In this document: positions 34,426-55,586 of the stretch, piece after piece
Layout: every line of letters begins with the position of its first letter
Position numbering within the stretch: the first letter of the stretch is position 1
Assembly (NCBI GenBank): GCA_045594005.1
Contig: JAZNXT010000138.1
Location: forward strand, 9,034 to 73,033
DNA from: Victivallales bacterium
Lineage (GTDB): Bacteria; Verrucomicrobiota; Lentisphaeria; Victivallales; UBA1829
Direction of reading: 5' to 3'
Length of the DNA: 64,000 nt
Translations under genes and position numbers: made by a program
The notes under the pieces: generated by a model
The model's database searches: none
Told to the model about the DNA's origin: nothing
The model's input: the letters and a program-made list of their open reading frames with translations, nothing else

Positions 34426-34455
34426 TCCTGAACCAGGAAAAACAACAAAATACGG

Positions 34456-34490: not shown

Positions 34491-34548
34491 ATGCAGAAAA
34501 ACAATAAAAAGATCATCAGAACATAACAAAATGAAAGGACACTGAAAA

Positions 34549-35574: not shown

Positions 35575-35577
35575 ATC

Positions 35578-36747: not shown

Positions 36748-36825
36748 TGTTGAAAAATGCCGCATTTCATGGTATATTAAATGCGGTATGTTTGAGATCT
36801 CAACGGCAGGAAGGAAAATAAAAAG

Positions 36826-37470: not shown

Positions 37471-37539
37471 AAAATTTTTATTTGAATTGAAGCGAAAACG
37501 ATTCAGAACTTTTGAGGAATTTTGAAATTACCTCATTCA

Positions 37540-37630
37540 TCATTGCGGGGTGCTGCTGTCAAAAAAACAGCGGCTGAGATCATACCCATTGAACCTGATC
37601 CGGATAATACCGGCGAAGGGAACAATATCA
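37540..37630 (+). promoter_or_regulatory. TPP (THI-box) riboswitch controlling thiC
   Basis: gcGGGGTGCtgctgtc...cagcggCTGAGAtcatACCCattgAACCTGATCcGGATAATaCCgGCGaAGGGAAc matches the conserved TPP aptamer elements in order. It ends about 70 nt before the thiC ATG. Confidence 0.92.
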
Positions 37631-37701
37631 AAACAACTGATTTCCGGCGTTGCATACCAGCCTCCCCCGCGTAAACTCAAAACGAGAAGGAGAAAAGAAG
37701 T

Positions 37702-38991: not shown

Positions 38992-39004
38992 TATTGTCCG
39001 GATG

Positions 39005-39040
39005 ACTTTCCCGTTGAGATCACAGCGGGAAAGTTTTTTT
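39005..39040 (+). terminator. rho-independent terminator after thiC
   Basis: ACTTTCCCG (39005-13) pairs with CGGGAAAGT (39026-34), followed by a T7 run. Confidence 0.85.
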
Positions 39041-39082: not shown

Positions 39083-39110
39083 TTGACACTGCATGATCTT
39101 TGATTATATT
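39083..39110 (+). promoter_or_regulatory. sigma70-like promoter of the APE-like locus
   Basis: TTGACA (39083-88), a 16-nt spacer, then TATATT (39105-10). It lies between the thiC terminator and the first KS gene. Confidence 0.5.
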
Positions 39111-39184
39111 ATAATAATTGCGGCAACAAGGTGTTTTTTTACCGCAATGAAAGAAGAAGAACAACAAATAACAACGGATCAGGC

Positions 39185-40414
39185 ATGACAAATACACGCA
39201 GAGCAGTCGTTACCGGTATCGGGGTGATCAGCCCTTCAGGCAATTCTGCCATCGAGCTTTATGATTCCCTGAAAAACGGCCGTTCCGGCGTCCGCGGGAT
39301 GACGGAATGGAAAGACTATTTCGGCAAGGTCATTGCCAATGCACCCGTCACACTGGACCCGGCACGGATCAAACAGATCAACCGGAAAGTCCGCCGGACG
39401 ATGGGTAATGCCGCGTTGTTTTCCGGTCTGGCGGCACAGGAAGCTGTCCTTCAGAGCGGGATCGATCCGGCGGAATTCACCAATGGCAGGACAGCTGTGG
39501 TGATCGGCTCCACCGTGGGGAGTGCATCCAGTATGGCGGAAGCGTGCATTGCGGAGAATGAAGGCAGGAGAGATGATCTTTCCAGCTGTCATTTTTTCCG
39601 TATGATGAGCCATTCCTCCAGTTTCAATGTGGCGGATCTTTTCGGGATCAACGGGATCCAGCTTTCCCCCTGTGCCGCATGTGCTTCCGGGCTTCAGGCA
39701 CTGGGGACCGCGCAGGAACTGATCCGGCTGGGAAAAGCGGATGTGGTTCTGGCCGGCGGTTCGGATGAATCCACCAGTCTTGTGGCATCCTCCTTCCAGC
39801 TGCTCTACGCGCTGGCGGAAGAAGAAACTGCCGAACCCGATAAACTGCCCCGTCCCTTTGACGCAAACCGCACCGGGCTTGTCTGCGCGGAAGGCGCGGG
39901 GATCCTGGTGGTGGAAGAATATGAACACGCGAAAAATCGGGGAGCGGAGATCCTTTTTGAGATCGCCGGTTATGCCACAAACTGTTCCGGATGGCATGTG
40001 AGCCATTCCGATGAAATGCAGATCGCCAACTGTATGCGTACAGCCATGCAGGATGCGGGGATCAATGCGGATGAGATCGACTATGTGAGTGCCCATGCCA
40101 CCGGCACGAAAGTGGGTGATCAGGCGGAAGCGGCGGCGATCCGGCAGGTCCTCGGGGACAAGGTGCCGGTATCCAGTCTGAAGGGTCATATCGGGCATAC
40201 GCTGGGGGCGTCCGGTGCATTGGAGCTGGCGGCAGTCCACGGGATGATGAAAGACGGGATCGTGCTGCCTACGCGGAATCTGGAAACGGTCACGGACTGT
40301 GCAGGGATCTGTCTGCCGCAGAACATTATGGAACACCGGGTCCGCACCTTTGTGAAAAACAGCATTGCCTTCGGCGGAGTGAACACCAGTATGGTTTGCA
40401 GGGTCATTGATTAA
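39185..40414 (+). CDS. beta-ketoacyl-ACP synthase (Cys-His-His; ApeR/ApeO-like)
   Basis: Trimmed from a GTG-extended ORF to ATG 39185, giving MTNTRRAVVTGIGVISPSG. Active-site contexts are CAACASG, SAHATGTKVGD and IGHTLGASG. Confidence 0.92.
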   Translation: MTNTRRAVVTGIGVISPSGNSAIELYDSLKNGRSGVRGMTEWKDYFGKVIANAPVTLDPARIKQINRKVRRTMGNAALFSGLAAQEAVLQSGIDPAEFTNGRTAVVIGSTVGSASSMAEACIAENEGRRDDLSSCHFFRMMSHSSSFNVADLFGINGIQLSPCAACASGLQALGTAQELIRLGKADVVLAGGSDESTSLVASSFQLLYALAEEETAEPDKLPRPFDANRTGLVCAEGAGILVVEEYEHAKNRGAEILFEIAGYATNCSGWHVSHSDEMQIANCMRTAMQDAGINADEIDYVSAHATGTKVGDQAEAAAIRQVLGDKVPVSSLKGHIGHTLGASGALELAAVHGMMKDGIVLPTRNLETVTDCAGICLPQNIMEHRVRTFVKNSIAFGGVNTSMVCRVID

Positions 40415-40451
40415 ACATACAAAAAACAAAACGAACGGAGAGAAAAAGAAG

Positions 40452-40730
40452 ATGAACAGAGATGAGATCGTTCAGGCAGTCAATTCCATTTTTATTGACC
40501 GTTTTGAATTTGATGAAGCGGAATTGACGCCCGAAAAGAAGATCTTTGACGATCTGGAACTGGACAGTCTGGATATTGTGGATATGATCGTGGGACTTCA
40601 GCAGAAATTCGGAGTGAATCTGCGTGAAAACAAAGATATCCGGGAAGCAAAAACACTGGATGATGTGTATAACATTTTTGAAAAACTGATCGCGGAACAT
40701 CCGGAGATCGCCGATAAGATCCGCAGTTGA
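40452..40730 (+). CDS. acyl carrier protein
   Basis: Trimmed to ATG 40452 (GGAGAG RBS). 92 aa with the phosphopantetheine-attachment context LELDSLDIVDMIVGLQQKFG. Confidence 0.9.
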   Translation: MNRDEIVQAVNSIFIDRFEFDEAELTPEKKIFDDLELDSLDIVDMIVGLQQKFGVNLRENKDIREAKTLDDVYNIFEKLIAEHPEIADKIRS

Positions 40731-40735
40731 GAGAT

Positions 40736-41491
40736 ATGACCTTCCTGCGCAGTTTCGCCATTTATTTTTCCACCGTGTTCTGGGCGGTCCTCTATTGGGG
40801 GATCGTGCTTGTGCCGCTGCTGCTTTCCCTGTTTCTGCCGGTGAGGATCCGTCAGAAATTTGTACGGATCCTGCTGCTGTGGTTCGGTCTTCTTACCATC
40901 CATGGGGCATGGCGGCCGTTTTTCCGGGTGAGTTTCAAAGATCTTTCCGGCAGTCCGCTGACACCGGGTGTGGTGGCGGTCAATCACCGGGCGGCGACAG
41001 ATGCGTTTCTGGTGGCGATGCTGCACAGCAGTTGTGCGCAGACCGTGAACGGCTGGCCGATGCGGACTCCCATTATCGGGACGGTGGCATATCTGGCGGG
41101 ATATTTGAATATCACCAACTGGAGTTTTGAAAAATTGCGTTCACGCGCGGAAACCGTTATAAAGTCAGGGGATGTGATCGTATCATTTCCGGAAGGGACG
41201 CGCTCGGAATCGAAAGAAATGAACCCGTTTCACAGCGGGATCTTTCAACTGGCTCTGGAATTGAATCTGCCGGTCCATATTTTGTGTATCGCGGGGAATG
41301 AGTTTATGCCGGACCGGAAATTCCGTTTCCGCTGTTTCAGGAAGGTGCTGACCCGCAGGATCGTATCCCTTTCCGCAGAAGAAGTACAGAATTGCGGCAC
41401 GGCATTTGCCTTGAAAAAAACGGTATTCCGGATGATGAAAGAAGAACTTGCACGGATGGATGAGGAGTTGGAAAATGAAAACAGAATTTGA
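40736..41491 (+). CDS. lysophospholipid acyltransferase (PlsC/LPLAT family)
   Basis: It has NHRAATD (the HX4D motif) and FPEGTRS, with N-terminal membrane spans. It overlaps the next gene by 17 nt. Confidence 0.85.
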   Translation: MTFLRSFAIYFSTVFWAVLYWGIVLVPLLLSLFLPVRIRQKFVRILLLWFGLLTIHGAWRPFFRVSFKDLSGSPLTPGVVAVNHRAATDAFLVAMLHSSCAQTVNGWPMRTPIIGTVAYLAGYLNITNWSFEKLRSRAETVIKSGDVIVSFPEGTRSESKEMNPFHSGIFQLALELNLPVHILCIAGNEFMPDRKFRFRCFRKVLTRRIVSLSAEEVQNCGTAFALKKTVFRMMKEELARMDEELENENRI

Positions 41492-42767
41492 ACTCAAAGA
41501 TGACATTTCGTTTCTGCCGGAGGCGGAATTGCGCGCGGCACAGGATAAATTGCTTTCCGAACAGATCCGTTACTGCCGCGAAAACTCCCCGTTCTACCGC
41601 AAAAAACTGGCAGATCTGCCCGGGGATATGGTGGTGGATTTTGACTCATTGCAGCAGTTGCCCACCACAAGTAAAAGCGATCTTGCGGAACACAATGAAG
41701 AATTTTTCGCGCTCCCCATGGAGCAGATCTCCGATATCTGTTTTACCAGCGGCACCACCGGCAATCCCTGCCGGATCGTGTATTCCGCCGGAGATTTGGA
41801 CCGGTTGGGATACAACGATGCCGTGGGATTCGTTTCCGCCGGGATGACAGCCAGTGATAAAGTTCTGCTCACCTGCACCATCGACCGCTGTTTCATTGCG
41901 GGGCTTGCCTATTACAACGGTGCGGTCAAGACCGGAGCCGCCGCCATCCGGAACGGTTTGAACTCTGTGGAAAGCCACGCCTCCATCATTGCATCGGTCC
42001 AGCCGGAAGCGATCGTGGGTGTTCCCAGCTTCATTGCAAAACTGGGGCAATATCTTTCTGACAACGGGATCGATACCTCCTGCGTGAAACGGATCATCTG
42101 TATCGGCGAACCCATCCGCACGAAAACGATGCAGCTGACTCCCCTCGGACAGAAACTGGAAGAATTCTGGCCCGGCGCAGTCCATTCCACTTATGCCTCC
42201 AGCGAGATCGTGACCAGTTTCACGGAATGTTCCGCACGGTGCGGCGGGCATCCCCCTGCCGATCTTGCCATTGTGGAAATTCTGGATGATGACGGCAACC
42301 GCGTCCCCGATGGTGAATGTGGCGAAGTGACAGTGACACCGCTTCAGGTGGCAGGGATGCCGCTGGTGCGGTTCCGGACCGGGGACATCAGTTTTCTGAT
42401 CCCGGAAAAATGTTCCTGCGGCAGAAACACCAAACGGCTCGGTCCCATTCTCGGACGGAAAGCACAAATGCTGAAAGTCCACGGGACAACACTTTTCCCC
42501 AATGCCTTTTTCCATATTCTTGACGGGATCGACGGTGTGACGGAATACTACATGGAAGTCAGCGGCTGCGCACTTTCCGATGAGATCAAAATTTTTGTGG
42601 CGTGCCGCAACGGGGAAACGCCGGAATCATTGAACATCTCCGAAAAACTTTACAGCAGGACCCGGATCCATGTACCGGTCTGTGCGGTGAGTGCGGAAGA
42701 AGCGCGGAAAAAAGTTTTCGGTGTTTCCCGGAAACCGGTCCGGTTCTTCGACCTGCGGAAATTTTGA
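41475..42767 (+). CDS. adenylate-forming enzyme, PaaK / coenzyme F390 synthetase-like (ApeH-like starter ligase)
   Basis: Trimmed to ATG 41475 (GAGGAG RBS). It carries TSGTTGNPCRIVYS, the (S/T)SGTTG.P motif of the PaaK-like clade. 430 aa. Confidence 0.85.
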   Translation: MKTEFELKDDISFLPEAELRAAQDKLLSEQIRYCRENSPFYRKKLADLPGDMVVDFDSLQQLPTTSKSDLAEHNEEFFALPMEQISDICFTSGTTGNPCRIVYSAGDLDRLGYNDAVGFVSAGMTASDKVLLTCTIDRCFIAGLAYYNGAVKTGAAAIRNGLNSVESHASIIASVQPEAIVGVPSFIAKLGQYLSDNGIDTSCVKRIICIGEPIRTKTMQLTPLGQKLEEFWPGAVHSTYASSEIVTSFTECSARCGGHPPADLAIVEILDDDGNRVPDGECGEVTVTPLQVAGMPLVRFRTGDISFLIPEKCSCGRNTKRLGPILGRKAQMLKVHGTTLFPNAFFHILDGIDGVTEYYMEVSGCALSDEIKIFVACRNGETPESLNISEKLYSRTRIHVPVCAVSAEEARKKVFGVSRKPVRFFDLRKF

Positions 42768-42779
42768 GGTGCGGCGGAT

Positions 42780-44228
42780 ATGATCATACCTTTTGACAAA
42801 AGCAAATACGATTATTCTACGGAAGAAATTCTGGAAAACATCACCGGAAGCCGTCTGCTTTCGGCAGAGATCGAATTCAACCGGAGCTGCAATTATCTCT
42901 GTCCCTACTGCTATGCTGCGGGGAACAGCGATCACGCGCAGCTTGATCCGGCAGTGGCGACCGATGCCATCCGGCAGGTCCACGCGCTGGGAGCCAGAAA
43001 GATCGTGGTACTGGGTGGAGAACCGCTCCTCTGCAAACAGTTGAAAGCCAATATTGAACTCATCACCGGCGAACTGGGTATGGGTGCGGAGATCTTCACC
43101 AACGGTGCTTTGATCAATGAAGACTGGGCAAAATTTTTCTTTGAACACGGCTGCCGCGTGGTGGTCAAACTCAATTCGCTCCGTCCGGAAGTACAGGAAC
43201 GCCTGACAGGTGTTCCCAATGCGCTGGACAAGGCATTTCACGCCATTCGCGTTTTGAAAGATGCCGGATTCGATTCGGAGATGCTGGTGGCAAGTTCTGT
43301 GATCTCTGCCGAAAATGAACAGGAAGTGGCAGAACTCTGGAAATATTTGCGGCGCAACGGCATCAAGCCCTATCTGGAGATCATGACTCCTCAGGGAAGA
43401 TTGCTGGAAAACCGGGATCTGGAAGTGCATCCCCGCAGATTGAAGGAGATCTTTGATGAGATCGCCGCATTCGACAATGCCAACGGTTACGACTGGGAAC
43501 CCCAGCCGCCGCTGGTCGGCTCAAAATGCCTGCGTCATCTGTATTCCTGCGTGATCGGAGCCACCGGAAATGTTACCCCGTGTGTGGGTCTGACGGAAGT
43601 ATTGGGCAATATTTACGAACGGAAACTTTCCGATATTCTCAGCACCAGTGTGGTATTACGGAAACTCAAAGATTTCCGCAACACCATCAAAGGTCCCTGC
43701 AAGACCTGTGAAAAAGCGGACAGCTGCTACGGCTGCCGCGGCGCGGTCTATCAGCTGACCGGGGATTATCTTGCCTCCGATCCGCTCTGCTGGAAGAATT
43801 GCGATACCCTTCTGGATCAGCCCTATCCCCTGCCCTGCGACGCACAGCAATGGCTGCCGCACCGTCCGCCTATGACTATGGTGGATGAACTGATTGAGTT
43901 CGGGGAATGGACAAAAGTCACGGCACGGATCAAGCCTGACAACCGTTTTCTGCGCGATGGCGTGCTTGACAACGAAGCTCTGCCGGAGATCGTGGCACAA
44001 GCCTGTGCTGTCATGACCGGTTTTGAACGGAACGATCACGATCTGGGTGGATTCCTTACCGGCTTGCGGTCCATCCGTTTTCTCCATCCTGTCCGCAGCG
44101 GTGATCTTCTGATCCTCCAGCTCCACGAATCCGGTCATGTGGATAACTATCATACTCTTGATTTCAAAGCAGTTCTGGAAGATGGGACCCTTTGTGCGGA
44201 AGGAGAACTTTCAATATGCGAAATCTGA
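42780..44228 (+). CDS. radical SAM / SPASM-like enzyme fused to C-terminal ApeI/FabA-like hotdog domain
   Basis: Single 482-aa ORF. The rSAM motif is C37-x3-C41-x2-C44 (CNYLCPYC). A Cys-rich block spans C250 to C337 (CLRHLYSC..TPCVG..GPCKTCEKADSCYGCRG..DPLCW). Residues 359-482 start with LPHRPPMTMVDEL, the hotdog entry motif. Confidence 0.85.
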   Translation: MIIPFDKSKYDYSTEEILENITGSRLLSAEIEFNRSCNYLCPYCYAAGNSDHAQLDPAVATDAIRQVHALGARKIVVLGGEPLLCKQLKANIELITGELGMGAEIFTNGALINEDWAKFFFEHGCRVVVKLNSLRPEVQERLTGVPNALDKAFHAIRVLKDAGFDSEMLVASSVISAENEQEVAELWKYLRRNGIKPYLEIMTPQGRLLENRDLEVHPRRLKEIFDEIAAFDNANGYDWEPQPPLVGSKCLRHLYSCVIGATGNVTPCVGLTEVLGNIYERKLSDILSTSVVLRKLKDFRNTIKGPCKTCEKADSCYGCRGAVYQLTGDYLASDPLCWKNCDTLLDQPYPLPCDAQQWLPHRPPMTMVDELIEFGEWTKVTARIKPDNRFLRDGVLDNEALPEIVAQACAVMTGFERNDHDLGGFLTGLRSIRFLHPVRSGDLLILQLHESGHVDNYHTLDFKAVLEDGTLCAEGELSICEI

Positions 44229-44791
44229 TTTTTTTTCTGATTTTTCTTTTTTCTGCGGGGATCGCGGCAGGTGAAATGCCCGCAGTGGTTCAGGCGGATT
44301 TTATTCAGACGCGTTTTCTGAAAGATCTGGAAATGGAGATCAGGATCACCGGAAGCATGGTTTATGAACGGAACGGCAGGATCCGCTGGGAGGTCAAAGA
44401 TCCGGTCAAAAGTATCACGGTCATCGGGAAAGATTTTTTGCGGCATTACGATGGGGATACCGGAAAAGTTGCTGAACTCAAAGGCAAGGATGCCTCCTGG
44501 GTGAAACTGCTCCATTCCAGTTTTTCCGACTGGCTTTCCGGCGATATGAAAAAACTGGCGGAGAATCAGGATTGCACCGTGGAAAAGATCTCGGAGCAGG
44601 AATTCCGTTTTACTGCCCGGGAAAAGGATAAGGGCTTATTCAAAACGCTTTTCATCACATTCAATAAGGGGAAAAACGGGATCAGCAGGATCCTGCTGGA
44701 AGAACATTCCGGCGATACGATGAAAATTGAGTTCCGCGCCGTCAAACACGATCCGGTACTGCCGGATTCCATTTGGAAAATTACAGAATGA
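44216..44791 (+). CDS. LolA-like outer-membrane lipoprotein carrier family protein (ApeL-like)
   Basis: Trimmed to ATG 44216 (GGAAGGAG RBS). It has the signal peptide MRNLIFFLIFLFSAGIAAG, then FIQTRFLKDLEMEIRITGSMVYERNGRIRWEV, typical of LolA-fold proteins. Confidence 0.8.
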   Translation: MRNLIFFLIFLFSAGIAAGEMPAVVQADFIQTRFLKDLEMEIRITGSMVYERNGRIRWEVKDPVKSITVIGKDFLRHYDGDTGKVAELKGKDASWVKLLHSSFSDWLSGDMKKLAENQDCTVEKISEQEFRFTAREKDKGLFKTLFITFNKGKNGISRILLEEHSGDTMKIEFRAVKHDPVLPDSIWKITE

Positions 44792-47721
44792 ATGAGCGGA
44801 TCGAACAATGGATCATCTGGATCGGGAAGCACCGCAAATGGTGTTTTTCCGCCCTGATCCTTGCGGCGATCCTTTCCGGAGCGGCACTTTATTTCAAGGG
44901 AGCGTTCACCAATGATGTGCGTCATCTTTTTCCGGAAAATGCGGAATCGGGCAGGACCTTCAAACTGCTTTCGGAAAGTCATCTTGCGGATCTGATCCAG
45001 CTGGAATTCATCTGTACGGATGAAACACAAACAGTGCAGGATCACGAAAGATGGCTGGATGAAGTCTATCGGAAAATGCAGCAGTCGGACAGGATCCGGA
45101 ATGTGGTATTCCGTTACCGTGCCGACGATCCCGTGGCGCAGATGGGGGATTTTGCGGATACGCTCCCCCGGTATCACACTCCCGACATTCTGAAAAGCTG
45201 TGATCCGGAGGAGGCTGCCGCCAATGCGTTGAAACGCCTTGCCATGCCGGGAAGTGCCAAAGCATTGCGCAGTCAGCCCTTCCCGCAGGTCTCCGGGAAA
45301 GTGATGAAAGAGCTTCAGTTACTGGACCGTTATTCCGGCATGGATCTTGCGCCGGAAGTGCCGTATTTTGCCTCAAACGATCTGAAACGGGCGATGATCG
45401 TTTTTGAATCGGATATTGCCGTGGGGGATGCCGATGCCGTCCGTGCGCTTTATGCGGAATTGGATACGCTCCTTTCTCCCCTGCCGGACGGCTTGCGGTT
45501 CCGGATCGTTTCCGGTGCGAATCACACATTGGGCAATGAGGAGGTTCTGAAACGGGATGCAGCCATCGCAGGTACGCTTTCGACCGTACTTTTTCTGCTG
45601 TTGTTTCTGATTTTTTACCGTCGTGATCCCGGTGCGCTGTGGATCCCGGTGATCCCTGCATTTGCATCACTGCTGGCATTGGGTGTAATGACACTGTTTT
45701 TCAATGAGATCTGTATGTATGTGATCGGGCTCGGCAGCTGCATCACGGGGCTTGCCATTGATCAGGGGATCCATATTTATTCTGCGTGCAGAGGATGCGA
45801 TGCGAAAAAAAAAGCGGCGGCACTGGCGAACCCCATGATCCTTTCCACGGCAACTACGGTGATCGTATTTATATTTCTGGCTTTTACAGGGATCCATGCC
45901 TATCATCAGCTGGCATTGTTTGCGGGTCTTTCGCTGGTATTGAGCTGTATCTTTGCCCTGTTCGTGCTGCCGTCACTGCTGAATACGGAAAAAGTCAGCG
46001 ACCCGCGCGATCCGCCGGAGTGGAATTTGAAGTTTGCCCGTACAGGAACGCTTGTTTTGCTCGTTGGCGGCGTGGCGGCATTGCCGTTCCTGTCTGTCAA
46101 TTTTGATTTGAAATCATTGGACGGGACACCTGCATCTGTTTTGGCGGAAGAGGAAGACTTCAACGCGGTCTGGCGGGAGGGAAGCATGAAGACGGCACTG
46201 CTTGCGGCATCCACGGATTCGCCGGATAAATCACTGGAAAGACTTCTTGCCGTAAAAGAAAAAGTGCGCAATATCGGGATCGCCCTGCCGCCGGAACCTT
46301 CCGCAGAGCGTCAGGAACAGAACCGGAAATCATGGCGGACAGCAGAAACAGCGGAACACATTGCAAAGTTGAAAAAAGCGACAGCGGATGCCTGTGTGAA
46401 GAAAGGACTTCCCGCAAAATTTTTCGATCCCTTTTTCGAGCGGCTGGATCGTGCCATCCGATCTGATGATCTGACCACGCCGGAACTTCTCCGGAGCGTA
46501 ATGAACAAAATGGGGAAAGACAACGGCAAGACCGTTGCCGCCATTGCCATGTTTGAGGAAACACCGGACAATGTGCGTGCGGTGCGTCATGCGATCCGCG
46601 ATCTTGAACTGGATAACGAAGCGGCGGTGATCTCCGGGACAGCTTTCAGGCAGATGATCAGTTATGATCTCTCCCTGCGTTTTCTGCTGCTGATGCCGCT
46701 GTGCATCATCGGAGCGATCGCATTGGCGGTATGGATGCTGCGGAAGATTTCCCATGTGCTGCTTGCGTTGATTCCGGTCGTTTCCGCGTTCTGCGGGCTG
46801 TTCATCGCGGGAGCATTGACAAATTATGAGATCACGCCTGCCGCCGGATTTGCCCTGATCATTCTTACCGGAATCGCCATCGACTACGGTGTTTATGCGG
46901 TCCATCTGGTTCAGAATCCGGAAAAACGCTCCATCCGCAGTTCCGTTCTGCTTTCGGCTCTGACCACCATTTTCGGAGCGGGCGCACTCATTTTTTCCCG
47001 GCATCCCGCTCTTTTCGGGACGGGTGTGGTGCTTTCGCTGGGGATCACCATTGCCTGTTTCGGCGGATTGTATCTGGTGCCGGCACTGGCAAAAAAAATC
47101 AAAGTTTCCGTACTGCTCGGCTGTATGATCCCATTATTTTTCTGTGCGTGTACGGCAACGGGGGGGACACCATTGGCGGATCATCCCCGGAAAATACAGT
47201 TGGAAAAAGCTGCGGATCTTCTTCCCGGCGGAGAAGGGATCGTTCATTTGCAGGCAAAAGCACTCTGCCGTTTCCGGGATATGGAACACGCTATGATCCT
47301 GGCGGGAAAGATCGATCCCGTACAGAAAAAAATCGAGTTGGCAGGGATCAGCAGCGCAGGGACTCTGATTTTCAAAACGGACGGAAAAGATTGTGTGCCG
47401 GGACCGGGCATCCCCGACAACGCAAAACAGATCTTCCGTCAGATCCCGGAAGACACGGCAAACATTTTTCTTTTTAATACAGATCAAGCCCTTGCAGAAA
47501 ATACTGCAGACGGATATATTACTCTGAAAGCACAGGACGGGACCGGGAGTCTGTTTCAGCAGCAGCCCGACGGCGCGCTGCGTCTGACGGAACGGTGGAA
47601 CACACGCCATTGGCATTGTCATTACGATGCCGATGGAAAAACGATCCGTTACCGCCGGTATGGTATTTTGCGCGGCTATGAACTGGAATTGACATTGACC
47701 AAGATCTGCAGAAGGAAATAA
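44788..47721 (+). CDS. MMPL/RND-like predicted exporter (ApeM-like) with about 200-aa C-terminal extension
   Basis: ATG 44788 forms an ATGA overlap with the LolA-like stop. It has two blocks of multiple hydrophobic spans separated by soluble regions, as in MMPL exporters. After an A8 tract (47091-47098) comes a lipoprotein-signal-like KKIKVSVLLGC segment and then a soluble domain. Confidence 0.85.
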   Translation: MNERIEQWIIWIGKHRKWCFSALILAAILSGAALYFKGAFTNDVRHLFPENAESGRTFKLLSESHLADLIQLEFICTDETQTVQDHERWLDEVYRKMQQSDRIRNVVFRYRADDPVAQMGDFADTLPRYHTPDILKSCDPEEAAANALKRLAMPGSAKALRSQPFPQVSGKVMKELQLLDRYSGMDLAPEVPYFASNDLKRAMIVFESDIAVGDADAVRALYAELDTLLSPLPDGLRFRIVSGANHTLGNEEVLKRDAAIAGTLSTVLFLLLFLIFYRRDPGALWIPVIPAFASLLALGVMTLFFNEICMYVIGLGSCITGLAIDQGIHIYSACRGCDAKKKAAALANPMILSTATTVIVFIFLAFTGIHAYHQLALFAGLSLVLSCIFALFVLPSLLNTEKVSDPRDPPEWNLKFARTGTLVLLVGGVAALPFLSVNFDLKSLDGTPASVLAEEEDFNAVWREGSMKTALLAASTDSPDKSLERLLAVKEKVRNIGIALPPEPSAERQEQNRKSWRTAETAEHIAKLKKATADACVKKGLPAKFFDPFFERLDRAIRSDDLTTPELLRSVMNKMGKDNGKTVAAIAMFEETPDNVRAVRHAIRDLELDNEAAVISGTAFRQMISYDLSLRFLLLMPLCIIGAIALAVWMLRKISHVLLALIPVVSAFCGLFIAGALTNYEITPAAGFALIILTGIAIDYGVYAVHLVQNPEKRSIRSSVLLSALTTIFGAGALIFSRHPALFGTGVVLSLGITIACFGGLYLVPALAKKIKVSVLLGCMIPLFFCACTATGGTPLADHPRKIQLEKAADLLPGGEGIVHLQAKALCRFRDMEHAMILAGKIDPVQKKIELAGISSAGTLIFKTDGKDCVPGPGIPDNAKQIFRQIPEDTANIFLFNTDQALAENTADGYITLKAQDGTGSLFQQQPDGALRLTERWNTRHWHCHYDADGKTIRYRRYGILRGYELELTLTKICRRK

Positions 47722-47727
47722 CAAGTT

Positions 47728-48123
47728 ATGGATTCGATCATCGGAAATGAATTGCGGAAACGCCTGAAAGATCTTTCCGCATTGGAAAATAAAGAAAACA
47801 CATATTGCTGCCGGATCTTTTTCGACCGGGCGTTCCGTGGATTTGAAGGACATTTTGAAGGCAATCCGGTAGTCCCCGGTGTCTGTCTGATAGAACTGAT
47901 CCGGGTTCATACGGAGGAGATCCTGCAGAAAGAATTGATCGTGAAAGAGATCGGTCAATGCAAATTCCGCAGTCCGTTCCTTGCCGGTATGGAAGGGGAA
48001 TGTATCACTCAAATCAGAGAAGCGGACGGCGGCATTTTTTCTGTTCAGGCGGAGATCCGGAACGACAGCGGCTCTGCCTGTAAGATGAAGCTGGTTCTGA
48101 CAGAAAGGGCGGCGGCACGATGA
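47728..48123 (+). CDS. 3-hydroxyacyl-ACP dehydratase, hotdog fold (ApeP/FabZ-like)
   Basis: 131 aa with the catalytic-His motif context FEGHFEGNPVVPGVCLIELI. Confidence 0.85.
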   Translation: MDSIIGNELRKRLKDLSALENKENTYCCRIFFDRAFRGFEGHFEGNPVVPGVCLIELIRVHTEEILQKELIVKEIGQCKFRSPFLAGMEGECITQIREADGGIFSVQAEIRNDSGSACKMKLVLTERAAAR

Positions 48124-48596
48124 GAAGAAAAAAAAGTTATTTTCAACAGCAGGAAGGCGATCCCGCGCCGCTGGTTCAGGAAGTGAAACGCCGTGTGGCA
48201 TTCAGCGAAGTGGATGCCATGGCGGTGGTATGGCACGGGAATTATCTGCGTTTTTTTGAAGCGGCACACACGGAACTCATGAACCGGATCGGATTGGGAT
48301 TTGCGGAATATGCAAAAGAACGGATCGCCGCACCCATGGTTCAGGCACATGTGGATTATCATGCGCCGCTGCTGCTGGATGAAGAGTTTACCGTCCGGGC
48401 GGAATTATATTGGAACGAAGGCGCACGGCTGGATATCGCCTATACCATCACCGGAGAAGACGGCAAGATCCGTGTCAGCGGATATACCGTACAAATGTTC
48501 TGCGGTTTGGATGATCACGCGCCCTGCATTTTTCCGCCGCCGGTGGCGGCACGGATGCGGGAACGCTGGCAGAACGGTGAATTTTATCAGGGATGA
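48120..48596 (+). CDS. 4HBT/YbgC-type acyl thioesterase (ApeK-like)
   Basis: ATGA overlap with the dehydratase stop. It has RVAFSEVDAMAVVWHGNYLRFFE, the typical 4-hydroxybenzoyl-CoA thioesterase-family N-terminus with catalytic Asp. Confidence 0.85.
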   Translation: MRRKKSYFQQQEGDPAPLVQEVKRRVAFSEVDAMAVVWHGNYLRFFEAAHTELMNRIGLGFAEYAKERIAAPMVQAHVDYHAPLLLDEEFTVRAELYWNEGARLDIAYTITGEDGKIRVSGYTVQMFCGLDDHAPCIFPPPVAARMRERWQNGEFYQG

Positions 48597-49687
48597 TGGC
48601 GATGAAAAAAGATGTTTCCTGCGTCATTACACACACAGCGGCAGTCACGCCCGCCGGAACGGGTATGGCGGAACAAATCCGCACCCTTTATAACGGGATT
48701 CAGCATTTTTCCCTGCCGGAACATTTTGACAGCCGCGGCACACAGCTGGGGGTGATCCATTCTCTGGACAGGACCGGCAGCAGATCCAGAGCGTTGGCTC
48801 TGTTGAAAATGCTGCGGGATGCCGTGGATTTTCCCATTCCTGAAGAAGGAACAAAACTTTTTCTTGCCACGACTGTGGGTGCGGTGGACCTGTTGGAACA
48901 GGGGGAAGTCTGCGACGGGACAATCGCGTTGCTGGAAGAAGCCAAAACACTGTTCGGGATCGGAAATGCCACACTCATCGCGGCGGCGTGCGCATCGGGT
49001 CAGACCGCTGCCGCAGTGGCGATGGAACAGTTGAAAAATCACAGTTGCGATCACGCACTGGTCATCGGCTGCGATGCCGTAAGCGAATTTGTTACCACAG
49101 GGTTTACGGCATTGGGGGCAACTGCCGGAAAAGATGTCTGCCGCCCTTACGATACCAACCGGTGCGGTCTGACACTGGGTGAAGCGGCATGCGCGTTGCT
49201 CCTGACGCGGCAGGATCTTGCAGAAAACGGGATCGGCAGGATCGTTGCCGTGGCGGAAAATTGTGATGCGAGCCATATCACCGCGCCCGATCTGGAAGGG
49301 ACGACACTCCGGAGAGCCATTGCACAGGCACTTGATGCCGCAGGCGGGTCAATCGGGGGGATCATCGGACACGGCACGGGAACGCTTTACAACGATCTGG
49401 CGGAAGTCAATGCCCTTTCTCATGTTTTCGGGAACGGGGAAAATGTACCGCCGCTTTTTTCGTTGAAGGGAAATTTCGGGCATACGCTGGGTGCGACCGG
49501 AGTTTTGCAGATCGCTCTCGGTTTGGAGATCTCCCGCAGAAAACTGCTGCCGCCGCAGGCAGGTTTGCGCGAAGGCATGATCCCCTCCGTTTCAAAAGAA
49601 GCGCAGGAATTGACTTCCGGCAGACTGTTGAGTCTGAATGTGGGATTCGGCGGTTTGAACAACGCATTGATCCTGGAGGCGTTATGA
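48593..49687 (+). CDS. beta-ketoacyl synthase (Cys-His-His; ApeO-like)
   Basis: ATGA overlap upstream. Active-site contexts are AAACASG, IGHGTGTLYND and FGHTLGATG. Confidence 0.9.
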   Translation: MMAMKKDVSCVITHTAAVTPAGTGMAEQIRTLYNGIQHFSLPEHFDSRGTQLGVIHSLDRTGSRSRALALLKMLRDAVDFPIPEEGTKLFLATTVGAVDLLEQGEVCDGTIALLEEAKTLFGIGNATLIAAACASGQTAAAVAMEQLKNHSCDHALVIGCDAVSEFVTTGFTALGATAGKDVCRPYDTNRCGLTLGEAACALLLTRQDLAENGIGRIVAVAENCDASHITAPDLEGTTLRRAIAQALDAAGGSIGGIIGHGTGTLYNDLAEVNALSHVFGNGENVPPLFSLKGNFGHTLGATGVLQIALGLEISRRKLLPPQAGLREGMIPSVSKEAQELTSGRLLSLNVGFGGLNNALILEAL

Positions 49688-50319
49688 TGGAACTTGCGCT
49701 CAAAGCCGGAGCATTGATCCGGACAAATACAGACGGTACCGTATCGGCAGAAATGCTGAACAGACCGGAACACTGGGAACAGATCCCGAACCTGAACGCA
49801 TTGCGTCTGCTTCTGACAGAACAGCCATTCATTCCCAAAGGGGATATGGATGATTTCGGACGGGGCAGTATCGCAGTCCGTTATGCCATGCTGGCGGCTC
49901 TGCTCACAGCCGCAGATCACGGCGGAAATATCAGCACGGATACCGGGATCATCGGTTGGAACGGACGGGGATGCACAAAGGAAAATCTGCGGTATTGGCA
50001 GGATTATACCGGGAATGATAAAATTGCCGGACGGGGCGGACTTTTTGTGGCGACACTGCCCACGATCCCGTATTGCGAAGCGGCGATCACACTGGGGTGT
50101 CACGGAGCTTCCGCCTATTTTCACACGGAGGCGGATACGGCGGAACTTTTCGCACTACTTTCCGATCGTGCGGGCGAACACTTCATTGCGGGAGAGATTA
50201 CGGAGGATTCCGCGTGTATGCTGCTCCTTTCCAAAGGAAAAAACGACACACAAATATCAGCCGGTCTGCCCTCGCTGGAAGCATTGTTTCACGCACTGAA
50301 AAAGGATCTGCCGAAATGA
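49684..50319 (+). CDS. KS N-terminal-like protein lacking active-site Cys (chain-length-factor-like, ApeC-like)
   Basis: 211 aa with ATGA overlaps on both sides. The thiolase-like segment TLPTIPYCEAAITLGCHGASAYF has no ACASG-type nucleophile motif. Confidence 0.7.
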   Translation: MMELALKAGALIRTNTDGTVSAEMLNRPEHWEQIPNLNALRLLLTEQPFIPKGDMDDFGRGSIAVRYAMLAALLTAADHGGNISTDTGIIGWNGRGCTKENLRYWQDYTGNDKIAGRGGLFVATLPTIPYCEAAITLGCHGASAYFHTEADTAELFALLSDRAGEHFIAGEITEDSACMLLLSKGKNDTQISAGLPSLEALFHALKKDLPK

Positions 50320-51905
50320 GATTTGCCTGTATCATTCCGTTATACAATCACGCAAAAACAGTCCTGCCGGTGGCACAGGGTGCAAAAAAACATATCAGCG
50401 ATGTACGGATCGTGGACGACGGCAGTACGGATCTGCCGGAAAATTTTGAAGAAGAGTTGAAAAATTCCGGCATTAAACTGATCCGGCATGAAGTCAATGC
50501 AGGCAAGGGAGCCGCGTTGAAAACGGCGGCAAAACTGCTGGCGGAAGAAAAGATTGACTATATGATCGTGCTGGATGCCGATGGTCAGCATGATCCCGAT
50601 GATATTCCGAAGTTTACGGATGCAGTGGAACAGAATCGCGCATCTGTCGTGATCGGGTGCCGGGATTTCAATACGGAAAATGTGCCGGGCTCCAGCAGAT
50701 TCGGCAGAAAATTTTCCAATTTCTGGTGTTATGTGGAAACGGGGAAATATTGTGACGATACTCAAAGCGGCTTCCGGGCTTATCCGGTAGAGGCGTTCAA
50801 TGCTTTGAAATTATATTGCGACCGTTATAATTTTGAGATCGAAGTGCTGGTAAAGCTCATTCGTGCCGGATTCACACCGGTGGATATCCCCATAAAAGTG
50901 ACGTATGAACCGCGTGGGAAAAGGATCAGCCATTTTCATCCGTGGAAAGACAATTTCCGTTTATCGCTGCTCCATACGGCACTGGTGGCGCGCCGGCTTC
51001 TGCCCATCCCGTACAAACGCCTTGCGCCGGAAACGAACTTGAGTGCAAAACGCGGCAACCGGCTCGGGATCGGTTTCTTCCGGGTACTGCTGGCATTGGG
51101 TGGATTCCGGATCGCATTGTTCTGCGCATGGATCGTCACCTGGTTTTATGCGGTCTTTGATAAAAAAGCATTTGCCGCCGCAGAAGGATATCTGCGTTTG
51201 CGCTTTCCCGCAGAACGGAAACTCAAAAAACATTTTCACCGTCTGATCTATGAACTGGCAAAGATCCTGATCCTTTCCGCACGGCAGGGAAGCGGGAAAG
51301 AATTGCCCGTGGAGGAAAGAGGAACGGAATTTCTGCCGGAAGACGGGGAAAGTGCCGTGCCGCTGCTGGCACATTTCGGCTGTTGGCAGATGTCCATGAG
51401 TCTGCTGGGGAAACCGGGCAGAGAAGCCTGTATCATGGCACGGCCGGACTACAATCAGAACATGGATAAATTTCTTGCCTTGAAGGATCCGCAGAAAAAA
51501 TTCCGTGTGATCTCCACCGAAAGTTTTTCCGGCGGTCTGGTGGAAGCTGCCGCCGCATTGGAACAGGGGACCAGTGTGATCGTGATGGGAGACCGGGCAG
51601 TTTCCGGAACGGCTTTGGCAAAAGTTCCCTATTTCGGCGGGACCATTGAACTGCCGCTGTCCCCGTGGATGCTGGCGGCACGGTGCCGGAAAAAAGTGAT
51701 CCCGGTCTTTGCGGAACTGGCGGAGAAACCGTACCGGATCATCCTGCATTATTGCAAGGGGATCGATTTTCAGGATATGGATGCCGATCATCGGATCAGG
51801 CAATCCGATCTGCTTCCAGCCATGGAAGAATACGGCAAACTGCTTCAGGAAATGGCGGAAAGATGTCCGTATCAGGTTTTCCGGTTCGGAAATGAACAAA
51901 AATAA
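50316..51905 (+). CDS. GT2 glycosyltransferase fused to LpxL/HtrB-like lipid acyltransferase
   Basis: Trimmed to ATG 50316 (ATGA overlap). The N-terminal half has IIPLYNHAKTV...VDDGSTD...VLDADGQHDP. The C-terminal half resembles late lipid A acyltransferases (LLAHFGCWQMS). 529 aa. Confidence 0.85.
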   Translation: MRFACIIPLYNHAKTVLPVAQGAKKHISDVRIVDDGSTDLPENFEEELKNSGIKLIRHEVNAGKGAALKTAAKLLAEEKIDYMIVLDADGQHDPDDIPKFTDAVEQNRASVVIGCRDFNTENVPGSSRFGRKFSNFWCYVETGKYCDDTQSGFRAYPVEAFNALKLYCDRYNFEIEVLVKLIRAGFTPVDIPIKVTYEPRGKRISHFHPWKDNFRLSLLHTALVARRLLPIPYKRLAPETNLSAKRGNRLGIGFFRVLLALGGFRIALFCAWIVTWFYAVFDKKAFAAAEGYLRLRFPAERKLKKHFHRLIYELAKILILSARQGSGKELPVEERGTEFLPEDGESAVPLLAHFGCWQMSMSLLGKPGREACIMARPDYNQNMDKFLALKDPQKKFRVISTESFSGGLVEAAAALEQGTSVIVMGDRAVSGTALAKVPYFGGTIELPLSPWMLAARCRKKVIPVFAELAEKPYRIILHYCKGIDFQDMDADHRIRQSDLLPAMEEYGKLLQEMAERCPYQVFRFGNEQK

Positions 51906-51916
51906 AGTCTGCGCAG

Positions 51917-51944
51917 TTGAAAAGCGCGGAATATATGCTATAAT
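51917..51944 (+). promoter_or_regulatory. possible internal sigma70-like promoter before ACP2
   Basis: TTGAAA (51917-22), a 16-nt spacer, then TATAAT (51939-44), inside the 88-nt gap before ATG 51994. Confidence 0.45.
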
Positions 51945-51993
51945 ATGCAAAAAGAAATCAATAATCACTGAAAAATCCCGGAGAAAACAGAAC

Positions 51994-52269
51994 ATGGATG
52001 AAGCAACACAGGCATTCCGCAAGGAATTGAAAGAAAATCTGATCGACTGGCTGCAGCTTTTGGATAAAACACCCGAAGATGTGGTGGATGAAGAACCCCT
52101 TTTCAATACCGGCATGGGATTGGATTCATTGGATGCTGTGGAAATCGTGATCCTGATGCAGAGGAAATACGGGATCGCACAGGCAGAAGTGGAAAACGGC
52201 GATAAACGCGCCATCTTTGCCACCTTTGCCTCTCTTGCGGATTTCATTGCGGAAAAACGCACGAAATAA
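51994..52269 (+). CDS. acyl carrier protein (second ACP)
   Basis: Trimmed to ATG 51994 (GGAGA RBS). 91 aa with the attachment context GMGLDSLDAVEIVILMQRKYG. Confidence 0.88.
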   Translation: MDEATQAFRKELKENLIDWLQLLDKTPEDVVDEEPLFNTGMGLDSLDAVEIVILMQRKYGIAQAEVENGDKRAIFATFASLADFIAEKRTK

Positions 52270-52312
52270 ACCATAGCGGCACTCAAAAAAAAACAAAACG
52301 GGATCTTCCACA

Positions 52313-54211
52313 ATGGCACGCGCAGGTATCAGCGGGATCGGGATCAAATCCGCACTCGGCGGCAACAGGACCGAAACTTTGAAAAATCTTTTTGCAGATT
52401 TCCCCGCACTTCCCGGCGGTACAGACCGTTATCAGACAGAATTGGATCTGCCTGTTTTTACGCTGCCGGAAAAAAAGGATCCGGAATTCTTTTTTGAATG
52501 GCCCGTCTATCTGCTTCAGCACGCATTGGAAGAAGCTCTCTCCCACGCGAATCTGACGCTTGATGATCTGAAAAACAAGCGCGTCGGCGTGGCTGTCGGC
52601 ACCACCGTGGCATGTCAGCTGAACAGTCTTTGTGCTTACACGAAATTGCGGAACGGTGATACGGCAGATGCCAAACCGTTTCTCCGTTATGTGCTGGGTA
52701 TGCCGGCGGAATATGTGCGCCGCACATTGAATTTGAACGGACCGGCAGTGACGATCTCCAATGCCTGTGCCTCCGGAGCCGATGCGGTGATGCTGGGGCT
52801 GAACTGGCTGAAAAATGAGGAATGTGATCTGGTCATTGCAGCCGGATGCGATTCTGTGGAAAAAGTTTCCCTCAACGGATTCAACGCATTGCGGGTCTGT
52901 TCCGCCGAACCGTGCCGTCCCTTTGATGCAAAACGAAGCGGCTTGAATTTGGGTGACGGTGCCGGTGTGGTGATTTTGGAAGATCCCGCGCAAGCAGAAA
53001 AACGGGGGATCAGAGTTGAATATGAAGTTGCCGGAGCGGGAAAGACTGCCGACGGATTCCACATCACCCAGCCGGAAGGATCCGGTGCGGAACTGGAACG
53101 GGCGATCCGTCTTGCGCTGAAAGAAAGCGCACTTGCGCCGGAAGATATTGATTTTATCAATGCGCACGGAACGGGTACGCTGGTGAATGACCGTGTGGAA
53201 GGTTCGGTATTGCCGCGGATCTTCGGGAACGGATTGCTTTATCACTCCACCAAAGCGATGACCGGGCATACGCTGGGGGCGGCGGGAACTCTGGAACTGA
53301 TCCTGACGATGCTGATGCTGAAGGAGAAAAAAATCTGCGCGAGTCACCGTTTTGAAACACTGCCGGAAGAATTGACTGTCCCACCGGTGCAGGAAGTAAC
53401 GCCTGTTGCGGGAAATGCTGCAGTTTCCACCTCTCTTGCTTTCGGCGGATCCAATACAGCACTGGTCGTAAAACGCATTGACTCTGACAAAAAAGAACAA
53501 ACAGCCGCGGAAGATCAAGATCTTTTCATCGCCGCCGCCTGCGTGCAGGAAAATGGCGCGCCGGATAAAGATACAGTGCTGGCAGTCTGCCGGAAATATG
53601 CCATGCGGCGGATCGACCGGTTGACACAGCTGGCAGTGGTGACTGCCGACAAACTGGCAGAACACCTTGATCCCCGGGAAGAAACGGCATTGATCACAGT
53701 CACATCCTACGGACCGATGGCGACCAGCTGCAAAGTTCTGGACGATATTCTGGATTTCCCGGAAAACCAGATCCTGCCCACCGGATTTTCCCATTCTGTG
53801 GTGAATGCGGCGGCTTCCTACATTGGAGCCGCACTGAAACTGCACGGACCCACCTTTGCCATTGCCGGATTTGAAGATCCCTTCCGCGAAGGGGTGAAAC
53901 TGGCAAAAAGTCTGCTCACAGGCGGGCGTTGCAGCAAAGTCATGCTCGTTGCACTGGATGAAGAAAACATCATCCGTGATGCGGCGGAACCGCTGCGGAA
54001 AAGCGGTATTCCCCTGCGTGCGGAAGGCAGCTGCGGATTGCTTCTGACGCTGGATCCGGCGCAAAACCGCTGCGGAAAACTGGAATTGACAGATGATACC
54101 GCTGCAGAAAGGCTCCTGCCCTGCGGGATCCCGGCAGATCTTCTTCCGCAGTTGGGAAATCACACAAATACAGTCCGTTTGAACAAATTGCACCCATCTC
54201 ATTGGAATTAA
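52313..54211 (+). CDS. beta-ketoacyl synthase fused to C-terminal KS-N-like (chain-length-factor-like) domain
   Basis: 632 aa. The first roughly 385 residues form a complete KS (SNACASG, NAHGTGTLVND, TGHTLGAAG, FGGSNTALVV). After a charged linker (DSDKKEQTAAEDQD) comes a second thiolase-like half without the Cys motif (PTGFSHSVVNAAASYIGAALKLHGP). Confidence 0.88.
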   Translation: MARAGISGIGIKSALGGNRTETLKNLFADFPALPGGTDRYQTELDLPVFTLPEKKDPEFFFEWPVYLLQHALEEALSHANLTLDDLKNKRVGVAVGTTVACQLNSLCAYTKLRNGDTADAKPFLRYVLGMPAEYVRRTLNLNGPAVTISNACASGADAVMLGLNWLKNEECDLVIAAGCDSVEKVSLNGFNALRVCSAEPCRPFDAKRSGLNLGDGAGVVILEDPAQAEKRGIRVEYEVAGAGKTADGFHITQPEGSGAELERAIRLALKESALAPEDIDFINAHGTGTLVNDRVEGSVLPRIFGNGLLYHSTKAMTGHTLGAAGTLELILTMLMLKEKKICASHRFETLPEELTVPPVQEVTPVAGNAAVSTSLAFGGSNTALVVKRIDSDKKEQTAAEDQDLFIAAACVQENGAPDKDTVLAVCRKYAMRRIDRLTQLAVVTADKLAEHLDPREETALITVTSYGPMATSCKVLDDILDFPENQILPTGFSHSVVNAAASYIGAALKLHGPTFAIAGFEDPFREGVKLAKSLLTGGRCSKVMLVALDEENIIRDAAEPLRKSGIPLRAEGSCGLLLTLDPAQNRCGKLELTDDTAAERLLPCGIPADLLPQLGNHTNTVRLNKLHPSHWN

Positions 54212-55556: not shown

Positions 55557-55586
55557 TCACCCGGAAAGAAGAAAAGAAGTCTGATC

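Follow-up and report, generated by a model that had tools for sequence, protein, structure and literature searches.

The 64,000-nucleotide stretch of DNA analysed here (the window; contig JAZNXT010000138.1 of a Victivallales bacterium) contains a locus of 18 genes organized in two operons, a main operon of 14 genes on the plus strand and a detached operon of four genes on the minus strand. The locus probably specifies a type II fatty acid synthase (FAS)/polyketide synthase (PKS)-like pathway of aryl-polyene (APE) design, belonging to a widespread subfamily marked by a radical SAM (rSAM) domain covalently fused to a dehydratase half (rSAM::dehydratase) and by a CrtI-like flavoenzyme, and making an exported, lipid-anchored unsaturated chain. 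The genes present, their catalytic motifs and fused domains, their similarity to the Ape proteins and the synteny across phyla are direct observations; we infer which starter is used, that the chain is a polyene, that the dehydratase is heterodimeric, what the rSAM and CrtI-like enzymes do and where the product goes. The locus extends a known, chemically uncharacterised family by a reduced variant and is not a system of a new kind.

Correspondence with the aryl-polyene cluster

The reference for the comparison, carried out by BLASTP, NCBIfam and hhalign, was the ApeA-R cluster of E. coli CFT073, the APE system being otherwise that of this strain and of Xenorhabdus doucetiae (Cimermancic 2014; Grammbitter 2019) and the pathway model that of Johnston 2021 (PMC8253772). 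The original prediction, made from the sequence alone, had described an APE-like locus and, indeed, nearly every gene has a counterpart in CFT073, with one-to-one similarity to ApeD, E, F, I, J, K, L, M, N, O/C, P, Q and R and identities ranging from 25 to 41%. All 14 plus-strand open reading frames (ORFs) of the main operon are intact and carry the predicted domains, as seen with Pfam and NCBIfam, at the coordinates foreseen; to place the likely gene starts more exactly, we used start codons, ribosome-binding sites and the genes called on an identical metagenome contig.

The chain-building part of the main operon begins with KS1 (39185-40414, +; PF00109, PF02801), an ApeR-like β-ketoacyl-ACP synthase (ketosynthase, KS) with an intact Cys-His-His triad and 38% identity to ApeR, whose top NCBIfam model is PRK09116, which is also that of E. 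coli ApeR (339.6 bits vs a cutoff of 470, ApeR itself scoring 778.8). Two acyl carrier proteins (ACP) of the APE types follow, each with the serine of the DSL motif: ACP1 (40452-40730, +; PP-binding), an ApeF-type carrier 37% identical to ApeF and lying just under the PRK05350 cutoff (64.7 vs 65 bits), and ACP2 (51994-52269, +), an ApeE-type carrier 41% identical to ApeE and lying above that of PRK09184 (77.1 vs 70 bits). The last gene (52313-54211, +; PF00109, PF02801, PF13723, top NCBIfam PRK09185) encodes a fusion of an ApeO-like KS, with intact triad and 31% identity to ApeO, and a Cys-less chain-length factor (CLF) half weakly similar to ApeC. The top models PRK09116, PRK09185, PRK09184 and PRK05350 are the very families to which ApeR, ApeO, ApeE and ApeF, respectively, belong above cutoff.

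Besides this KS::CLF protein, the operon encodes KS2 (48593-49687, +), with an intact triad, a divergent N-terminus and ~35% identity to ApeO/ApeR over the C-terminal two thirds, and its putative partner CLF2 (49684-50319, +), a truncated KS N-domain of 211 amino acids that aligns with the N-terminal half of ketosynthases and ends before the active-site Cys. CLF2 itself gave no Pfam match, yet PF00109 was matched by 6 of 13 orthologues (best E 2e-8), and these matches settle its identity; hhalign gave a weak signal between the CLF2 family and the CLF half of the fusion (E 6.5e-4) and none against the single ApeC sequence. The extra KS/CLF set that had been predicted is present. Overall, the triad is kept in all four KS domains of the two operons and the Cys is absent from both CLF parts; the KS plus truncated, Cys-less CLF arrangement of the ApeO:ApeC type occurs twice. 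As in APE clusters, no enoyl reductase is encoded: Pfam scans found no such domain in any ORF of the two operons.

The genes for release, anchoring and transport follow the same pattern. An LPLAT acyltransferase (40736-41491, +; PF01553) is similar to ApeD (BLASTP E 2e-11), a 4HBT/YbgC-type thioesterase (48120-48596, +; PF13279) is 34% identical to ApeK, and a family 2 glycosyltransferase fused to an LpxL-type acyltransferase (GT2::LpxL; 50316-51905, +; PF00535, PF03279) has the architecture of ApeJ, with 26% identity over the full length (E 2e-38). A LolA-like periplasmic carrier (44216-44791, +; PF03548) gives a short match to ApeL and a weak match to the flexirubin LolA2 family. With the FabG-like ketoreductase, the split ApeI/ApeP dehydratase, the MMPL exporter and the DUF3261 protein described below, these are all features in common with APE.

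The adenylating ligase (41475-42767, +), presumed to activate the starter acid, departs from this pattern. The prediction had placed it, as a PaaK-like enzyme, within the ApeA-R gene set; PaaK-like it is, as indicated by its match to phenylacetate-CoA ligases in the PDB (E 7e-35), but it is not ApeH-like. BLASTP gave no significant match with ApeH of E. coli (best E 0.18), the enzyme of APE clusters that adenylates 4-hydroxybenzoate and loads the ACP and that resembles 4-coumarate ligases; the closest family of the window enzyme is FlxY of the flexirubin clusters (FlxA-Y, DarA/B) of Bacteroidota, matched over the full length with 413.9 bits, under the cutoff of 520. Flexirubin chain building is likewise type II FAS-like, and the LolA2 similarity mentioned above also lies under its cutoff; no tyrosine ammonia-lyase, DarA/DarB or standalone KS-III-type protein was found among the window ORFs scanned. 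Neither a radical SAM nor a CrtI-like enzyme is known from flexirubin clusters.

The window further differs from APE in having an rSAM/SPASM unit fused to the ApeP-like half, a CrtI-like flavoenzyme, an α/β hydrolase, a second KS/CLF set plus an extra KS, an ApeN domain fused to the ApeM-like exporter, and two operons. Among the window proteins compared, BLASTP found no significant match to the lipoprotein ApeA or to the SAM-dependent methyltransferase ApeB, and no counterpart of ApeG was found; the predicted lack of a methyltransferase was borne out, since Pfam scans of the window show no methyltransferase domain.

The detached operon

The original prediction held that the locus has no ketoreductase of its own. 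This is true of the operon at 39-54 kb but not of the locus as a whole, because an ApeQ/FabG-like short-chain dehydrogenase/reductase (SDR; 31183-31911, -; adh_short_C2 E 8e-49), 39% identical to ApeQ, is encoded on the minus strand at a distance of 8 kb. Its neighbour is the CrtI-like gene (29714-31186, -) whose presence at this distance had been noted correctly. The latter encodes an enzyme of the FAD-dependent amine-oxidase fold (PF01593, PF13450) that resembles CrtD, CrtI and the protein of PDB entry 4dgk at the N-terminal FAD-binding motif only.

Read from 34283 to 29714, the minus-strand operon comprises, in order, the hydrolase, KSup, the SDR and the CrtI-like gene, the three junctions being an ATGA overlap, a 6-nt gap and a second ATGA overlap. 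The α/β hydrolase (33162-34283, -; BD-FAE, Abhydrolase_3) probably starts near 34168, and KSup (31918-33222, -), a FabF/ApeR-like ketosynthase with intact triad and 34% identity to ApeR, likely starts at 33165, where its ATGA overlaps the hydrolase stop. In the two nearest relatives (L001 and L002), a block of the same four genes stands immediately 5' of KS1 on the same strand; since the four genes are contiguous with the cluster there, the ketoreductase of the window is displaced, not missing, and the system amounts to 18 genes in two operons.

The radical SAM fusion and the split dehydratase

A radical SAM/SPASM enzyme fused to a hotdog domain (42780-44228, +) was rightly recognized in the locus; the hotdog part is an ApeP-like/FabZ-fold half-dehydratase (PF22817). 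The rSAM domain contains the CX3CX2C motif in the form CNYLCPYC, together with the complete set of seven SPASM cysteines, which implies two auxiliary clusters. An AlphaFold2 model of the fusion (pLDDT 85.7, pTM 0.84) was submitted to Foldseek, which matched the residues up to ~340 with SkfB, SuiB, anSME and CteB and residues ~345-482 with FabZ (TM 0.78-0.82). A weak relationship to AhbD/NirJ-type enzymes is detected by NCBIfam and, taken with the SPASM architecture, suggests that the rSAM step may be a two-electron oxidative or cross-linking one, independent of oxygen.

The active site of FabZ is made up of a His from one protomer and a Glu from the other. Alignment with FabZ, ApeI and ApeP indicated that the fused hotdog, like ApeP, has lost the catalytic His and kept the Glu of the E-x-x-A-Q motif: among 14 aligned rSAM-fused hotdogs the GHF motif occurs in none and the [PI]E.xAQ pattern in 13, Glu403 being invariant in all. 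The complementary residue is found in the ApeI-like hotdog protein encoded downstream (47728-48123, +; weak ApeI-like, FabA and FabZ matches), which bears a FabZ-type GHF with His42, and the F-x-G-H-F motif was present in 54 of 54 ApeI-like orthologues examined. The simplest reading is therefore a heterodimer with one composite active site, to which the ApeI-like subunit would contribute the His and the fused hotdog the Glu; in such an ApeI-like : rSAM-ApeP-like dehydratase the rSAM domain would be placed at the dehydration step.

A possible, if rather doubtful, extension of this model is that, while the enoyl or polyenoyl chain is being elongated on its carrier, the rSAM domain subjects it to a radical transformation of the C-H or C-C type, the clade of the window making the unmodified core scaffold. 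If true, this would be an in-line radical step within a type II FAS/PKS cycle, and anaerobes would gain a new class of outer-membrane lipid, for instance a polyene that has been cross-linked, cyclised or desaturated further. A comparison may be made with Jaw5 of the jawsamycin pathway, a radical SAM cyclopropanase whose proposed substrates, according to a review (PMC13459092), are the carrier-bound enoyl intermediates of the growing polyketide chain. Jaw5, however, is not fused to its partner, which is a type I iterative PKS, whereas the SPASM-type enzyme of the window is fused to a type II half-dehydratase. The literature search found no study characterising a radical SAM::dehydratase fusion.

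The exporter

The large membrane protein of the main operon (44788-47721, +; PF03176) is an ApeM-like MMPL/RND exporter with 25% identity to ApeM over 500 amino acids. The fused C-terminal domain that had been predicted is present, but it does not constitute a departure from APE: the final ~210 of its 977 residues, a domain placed at roughly residues 771-982, are homologous to the LolB-like DUF3261/ApeN. When the C-terminal family was compared by hhalign with DUF3261 plus ApeN, the probability was 98.5-99.1% and the E values lay between 3e-15 and 1e-17. As the extra domain is the canonical ApeN, it makes the locus more APE-like, not less. In E. coli, the ApeN gene is directly 3' of ApeM and, similarly, DUF3261 is directly 3' of MMPL in 39 related loci; the fusion is kept in all seven close relatives examined (L001, L002, L004-L006, L008 and L009). 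The fusion retains a lipoprotein-signal-like segment with a Cys (~47083-47150, MMPL residues ~771-795), and several relatives have here a canonical L-x-G-C lipobox, examples of the lipobox-type Cys being LLSVTGC and LFLAGC. On account of this internal signal-like stretch, post-translational cleavage and lipidation of the ApeN-like domain is a possibility.

Distribution and gene order of the family

When 185,579 species genomes were scanned by pattern for relatives of the rSAM fusion, such proteins proved to be encoded at 545 places, of which the best 80 loci were compared. These 80 include loci of the cultured Victivallis vadensis DSM 14823 (L015) and Oligosphaera ethanolica DSM 24202 (L018) and of Verrucomicrobia, Kiritimatiellae, Omnitrophota, Nitrospirota and Deltaproteobacteria/Syntrophales; three syntenic loci with 40-43% identity (L051, L063 and L078) belong to metagenome-assembled genomes (MAGs) of Brocadiaceae. 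The nearest relatives of the fusion, at 63-72% identity, are encoded by Lentisphaerae/Victivallales MAGs, of which several were obtained from rumen or caecum samples, and the host is a gut or rumen Lentisphaerae bacterium. A second protein search yielded more than 1,900 metagenome clusters (90% identity) at E <= 1e-60, with the Radical_SAM + SPASM + ApeP-like architecture in 120 of the 120 top matches; the source names displayed are all "radical SAM protein", some with a note on the SPASM domain. The representative P0001, 100% identical to the fusion of the window, is from two short metagenome contigs only, and an exact-sequence look-up of the fusion gave no match.

As determined by tBLASTN, the 80 loci share the order SDR-CrtI-like-KS-ACP-LPLAT-ligase-rSAM::dehydratase-LolA-MMPL-(DUF3261), continuing with ApeI-like dehydratase-thioesterase-KS-CLF-(two B12-binding rSAM)-GT2::LpxL-(ACP-KS::CLF), and this order spans at least six phyla. 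The SDR and CrtI-like genes lie upstream of the fusion gene in 36 of the 46 loci that have more than 7.5 kb of upstream sequence, on the same strand in 33, so the pairing of these two genes is conserved across phyla. The composition, called non-canonical in the original prediction, is not idiosyncratic: this architecture is conserved throughout a large family that extends across phyla and whose gene content had already been described (PMC2649909).

Within the family, the clade of the window is distinguished by the fusion of ApeN to MMPL and by the absence of a pair of B12-binding rSAM genes. Between CLF and GT2::LpxL, these genes occur in tandem in 30 or more related loci, among those numbered L010-L078, that represent several phyla (e.g., L012:17658-18902 and L012:18911-20254, both with B12-binding and Radical_SAM domains), whereas tBLASTN found no match to them anywhere in the window. 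The distance from KS2 to GT2 is 0.63 kb in the window and 0.37-0.58 kb in L001-L009, as opposed to ~3.1-3.5 kb in 23 other loci. By comparison with the rest of the family, the window clade is a naturally reduced form without the two B12-rSAM genes. The extra KS and the α/β hydrolase are shared by the window, L001 and L002, these two relatives being the only related loci with the hydrolase at the 5' end of the cluster, and the SDR/CrtI block, detached in the window, is apparently so in several relatives as well.

These data bear on the alternative that the locus is an ordinary APE pigment cluster of a characterised subfamily and that the rSAM and CrtI-like genes are incidental neighbours. Most genes do have Ape counterparts, and antiSMASH has called "aryl polyene" clusters in Lentisphaeraceae MAGs (PMC9476954); against it stand the covalent rSAM fusion to the ApeP-like half in every protein inspected, whether the 14 aligned or the top 120 matches, and the CrtI-like/SDR pair syntenic in the 36 of 46 loci mentioned above. 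Considering also that the ligase is not orthologous to ApeH, that ApeA, ApeB and ApeG are absent and that the core enzymes score under the equivalog cutoffs, this alternative is improbable.

Relation to the Kuenenia-type clusters and to ladderane biosynthesis

The taxa that carry the family are mostly anaerobes, which counts in favor of a second alternative, namely an oxygen-independent route to membrane polyunsaturated fatty acids or hydrocarbons in which the CrtI-like and rSAM enzymes would serve as desaturases. Such a route goes back to Rattray et al. 2009 (PMC2649909), who described extended fatty-acid clusters of Kuenenia stuttgartiensis (kuste3335-3352), syntenic with those of Desulfotalea psychrophila (DP1853-1860), Geobacter and Pelobacter, that contain radical SAM, phytoene-dehydrogenase-like and phenylacetyl-CoA-ligase-like proteins, a glycosyltransferase, a new membrane protein and Cys-less FabF paralogues. 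The window shares with this type (PMC2649909, PMC4790861) the radical SAM, phytoene-dehydrogenase-like and phenylacetyl-CoA-ligase-like proteins, the glycosyltransferase, the large membrane protein, several FabF paralogues including Cys-less ones, two ACPs and FabZ-like and FabG-like enzymes; it differs in having no tandem B12-rSAM genes and no SAM methylases and in an order unlike that of the kuste numbering. Judged by its gene content, the window locus is a cluster of the type reported in 2009; no Kuenenia or Desulfotalea name was found among the homologues of a Brocadiaceae orthologue.

This agreement in gene content with the published description (PMC2649909), which includes a non-canonical FabF, and the polyunsaturated hydrocarbons detected in D. 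psychrophila both favor the desaturase route. Nevertheless, the dedicated ligase, the thioesterase, the LPLAT, GT2::LpxL and the LolA/MMPL/ApeN export set suggest a specialised, anchored lipid of the outer membrane and not bulk fatty acids; ketoreduction and dehydration without enoyl reduction give conjugated unsaturation, for which a desaturase is not needed; and expression of the Kuenenia cluster in E. coli gave no new fatty acids (PMC4790861). We regard this route, too, as unlikely.

A third alternative arises from annotation. The cluster type is detected by antiSMASH as "ladderane" or "aryl polyene" (PMC4489286, PMC9902471, PMC9476954), the "ladderane" class of antiSMASH 3.0 having been founded on Rattray 2009, and clusters so labelled have been reported, and found expressed, in Desulfobacterota, Verrucomicrobiota, Omnitrophota and other phyla. 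Such labels in many non-anammox phyla and the orthologous loci of the three Brocadiaceae MAGs could be taken to mean that the window encodes ladderane lipid biosynthesis. Ladderanes, however, are reported from anammox bacteria only, and the cluster now held to be specific to their producers is a different one, kuste3603-3608; moreover, the window has no B12-binding rSAM genes, and its host belongs to the Lentisphaerae, with closest relatives among rumen and gut MAGs. A ladderane locus is thus very improbable, and because of the points counted against each of the three alternatives all are less likely than the APE-type pathway with an rSAM::dehydratase.

The proposed pathway

In the APE-type pathway proposed here, the PaaK/FlxY-type ligase would activate a carboxylic-acid starter, probably an aryl acid, and pass it to a carrier protein, after which the ApeR-like KS, KS2 with CLF2, and KS::CLF would elongate it with malonyl units on ACP1 and ACP2. 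In each round the SDR would reduce the β-keto group and the heterodimeric dehydratase, combining the ApeI-like His and the rSAM-fused Glu, would remove water; the chain would remain unsaturated because neither operon encodes an enoyl reductase. The tethered rSAM/SPASM unit and the CrtI-like enzyme are predicted to carry out an oxygen-independent oxidative tailoring of the carrier-bound chain. Finally, the thioesterase, the LPLAT and GT2::LpxL would transfer the acyl chain to a (glyco)lipid anchor, and MMPL::ApeN, together with the LolA-like carrier, would bring the lipid to the outer membrane. The original suggestion that the product may be a related but structurally distinct lipid or pigment is reasonable.

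Several points weigh against the pathway as drawn. The aryl starter, suggested by the PaaK/FlxY similarity, is but a guess, since the ligase is not orthologous to ApeH, and a housekeeping enoyl reductase could saturate the chain. The His and Glu positions of the dehydratase are named provisionally after an E. coli FabZ reference sequence; the FabZ fold itself has independent support, including that of Foldseek. With the sole exception of ACP2, the core proteins fall under the APE-family NCBIfam cutoffs. The Kuenenia cluster that failed to yield new fatty acids in E. coli has the same gene content, and its CrtI-like protein, kuste3336, neither desaturated phytoene nor replaced CrtI (PMC4790861). 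Lastly, the literature search revealed no product reported for any member of the rSAM::dehydratase subfamily.

Identification of the product would correct the widespread "ladderane" and "aryl polyene" annotation in genome-mining surveys, would show what an rSAM enzyme does when fused to a fatty-acid dehydratase and would aid the ladderane question by excluding non-specific clusters. What the window contributes is a reduced variant, having the exporter::ApeN fusion and no B12-rSAM genes, and a testable model of the split dehydratase.

Operon structure and promoters

The gene junctions likewise agree with what had been predicted. Overlaps occur at seven of the 13 junctions of the main operon (ATGA at five, longer overlaps of 13 and 17 nt at the other two), and the remaining gaps measure 5-43 nt with the single exception of one of 88 nt; both operons are translationally coupled. 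The foreseen σ70-like promoter TTGACA-16-TATATT was located on the plus strand at 39083-39110, 5' of the main operon and directly 3' of a strong terminator-like hairpin (39004-39035) that closes thiC. The possible internal promoter, TTGAAA-16-TATAAT with a TG extension (51917-51944, +), is also present, scoring 11/12 and lying within the sole 88-nt gap. These two are the only sites with an 11/12 score in the 19.5 kb between 36.5 and 56 kb. Overall, the promoter-like sites (18 observed vs 14 +/- 3 by chance) are not above chance, and support for the two promoters therefore comes from their position and not from number.

Genomic surroundings

Between the two operons lie genes of phenylpyruvate supply, encoding DAHP synthase (34549-35574, +; PDB 4grs, E 5e-104) and chorismate mutase/prephenate dehydratase (pheA; 35578-36747, +; E 2e-40), followed by a gene for a 214-aa protein (36826-37470, +) without match in Pfam, NCBIfam or PDB apart from a marginal rhodanese hit (E 0.026), a thiamine pyrophosphate (TPP) riboswitch (37536-37639, +; 70.1 bits vs a gathering score of 54.3) and thiC (37702-38991, +), which the hairpin mentioned above terminates as an independent unit beside the cluster. 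None of these genes is near the cluster in any of the 80 related loci, for which reason the link of the aromatic-precursor genes to the cluster is unproven and their adjacency possibly coincidental. A 749-aa ORF on the minus strand (34516-36765), initially treated as a cluster gene, was rejected as an antisense artefact because of its odd composition, its lack of family matches and the presence of the DAHP synthase and pheA genes on the opposite strand. In the DAHP synthase leader (34272-34548, +), a promoter-like site scoring 11/12 (34272-34300) and, further on, a GC-rich hairpin with T8 behind it (~34455-34500) give the appearance of a transcription attenuator; the leader had no meaningful match in Rfam.

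On the other side of the detached operon, a polysaccharide locus (15936-29733) with a low G+C of 0.39-0.44 at 18-26 kb abuts the CrtI-like gene and comprises an ABC-2/Wzt exporter pair, a radical SAM protein (18466-19557), a pyruvyl transferase, six GT2 glycosyltransferases, a UDP-glucose dehydrogenase and an epimerase/dehydratase. Long ORFs without Pfam match at E <= 1e-4 are found at 577-2652, 4844-6301, 11247-12686 and 12638-13693 (all -) and at 14108-16024 (+), some of which may be antisense artefacts like the 749-aa ORF.

Downstream of the main operon, the region 54246-57403 (+) begins with a GH39-like gene 34 nt 3' of KS::CLF, with no terminator between them, and continues with two EamA transporter genes; the GH39-like gene may belong to the same transcript as the cluster. 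In two related loci (L042 and L043), MMPL too is followed by EamA-like genes. Near the opposite end of the window, a pyruvate:ferredoxin oxidoreductase gene (6416-9952, -), accompanied by QueC (10075-10830, -), is consistent with an anaerobic host.

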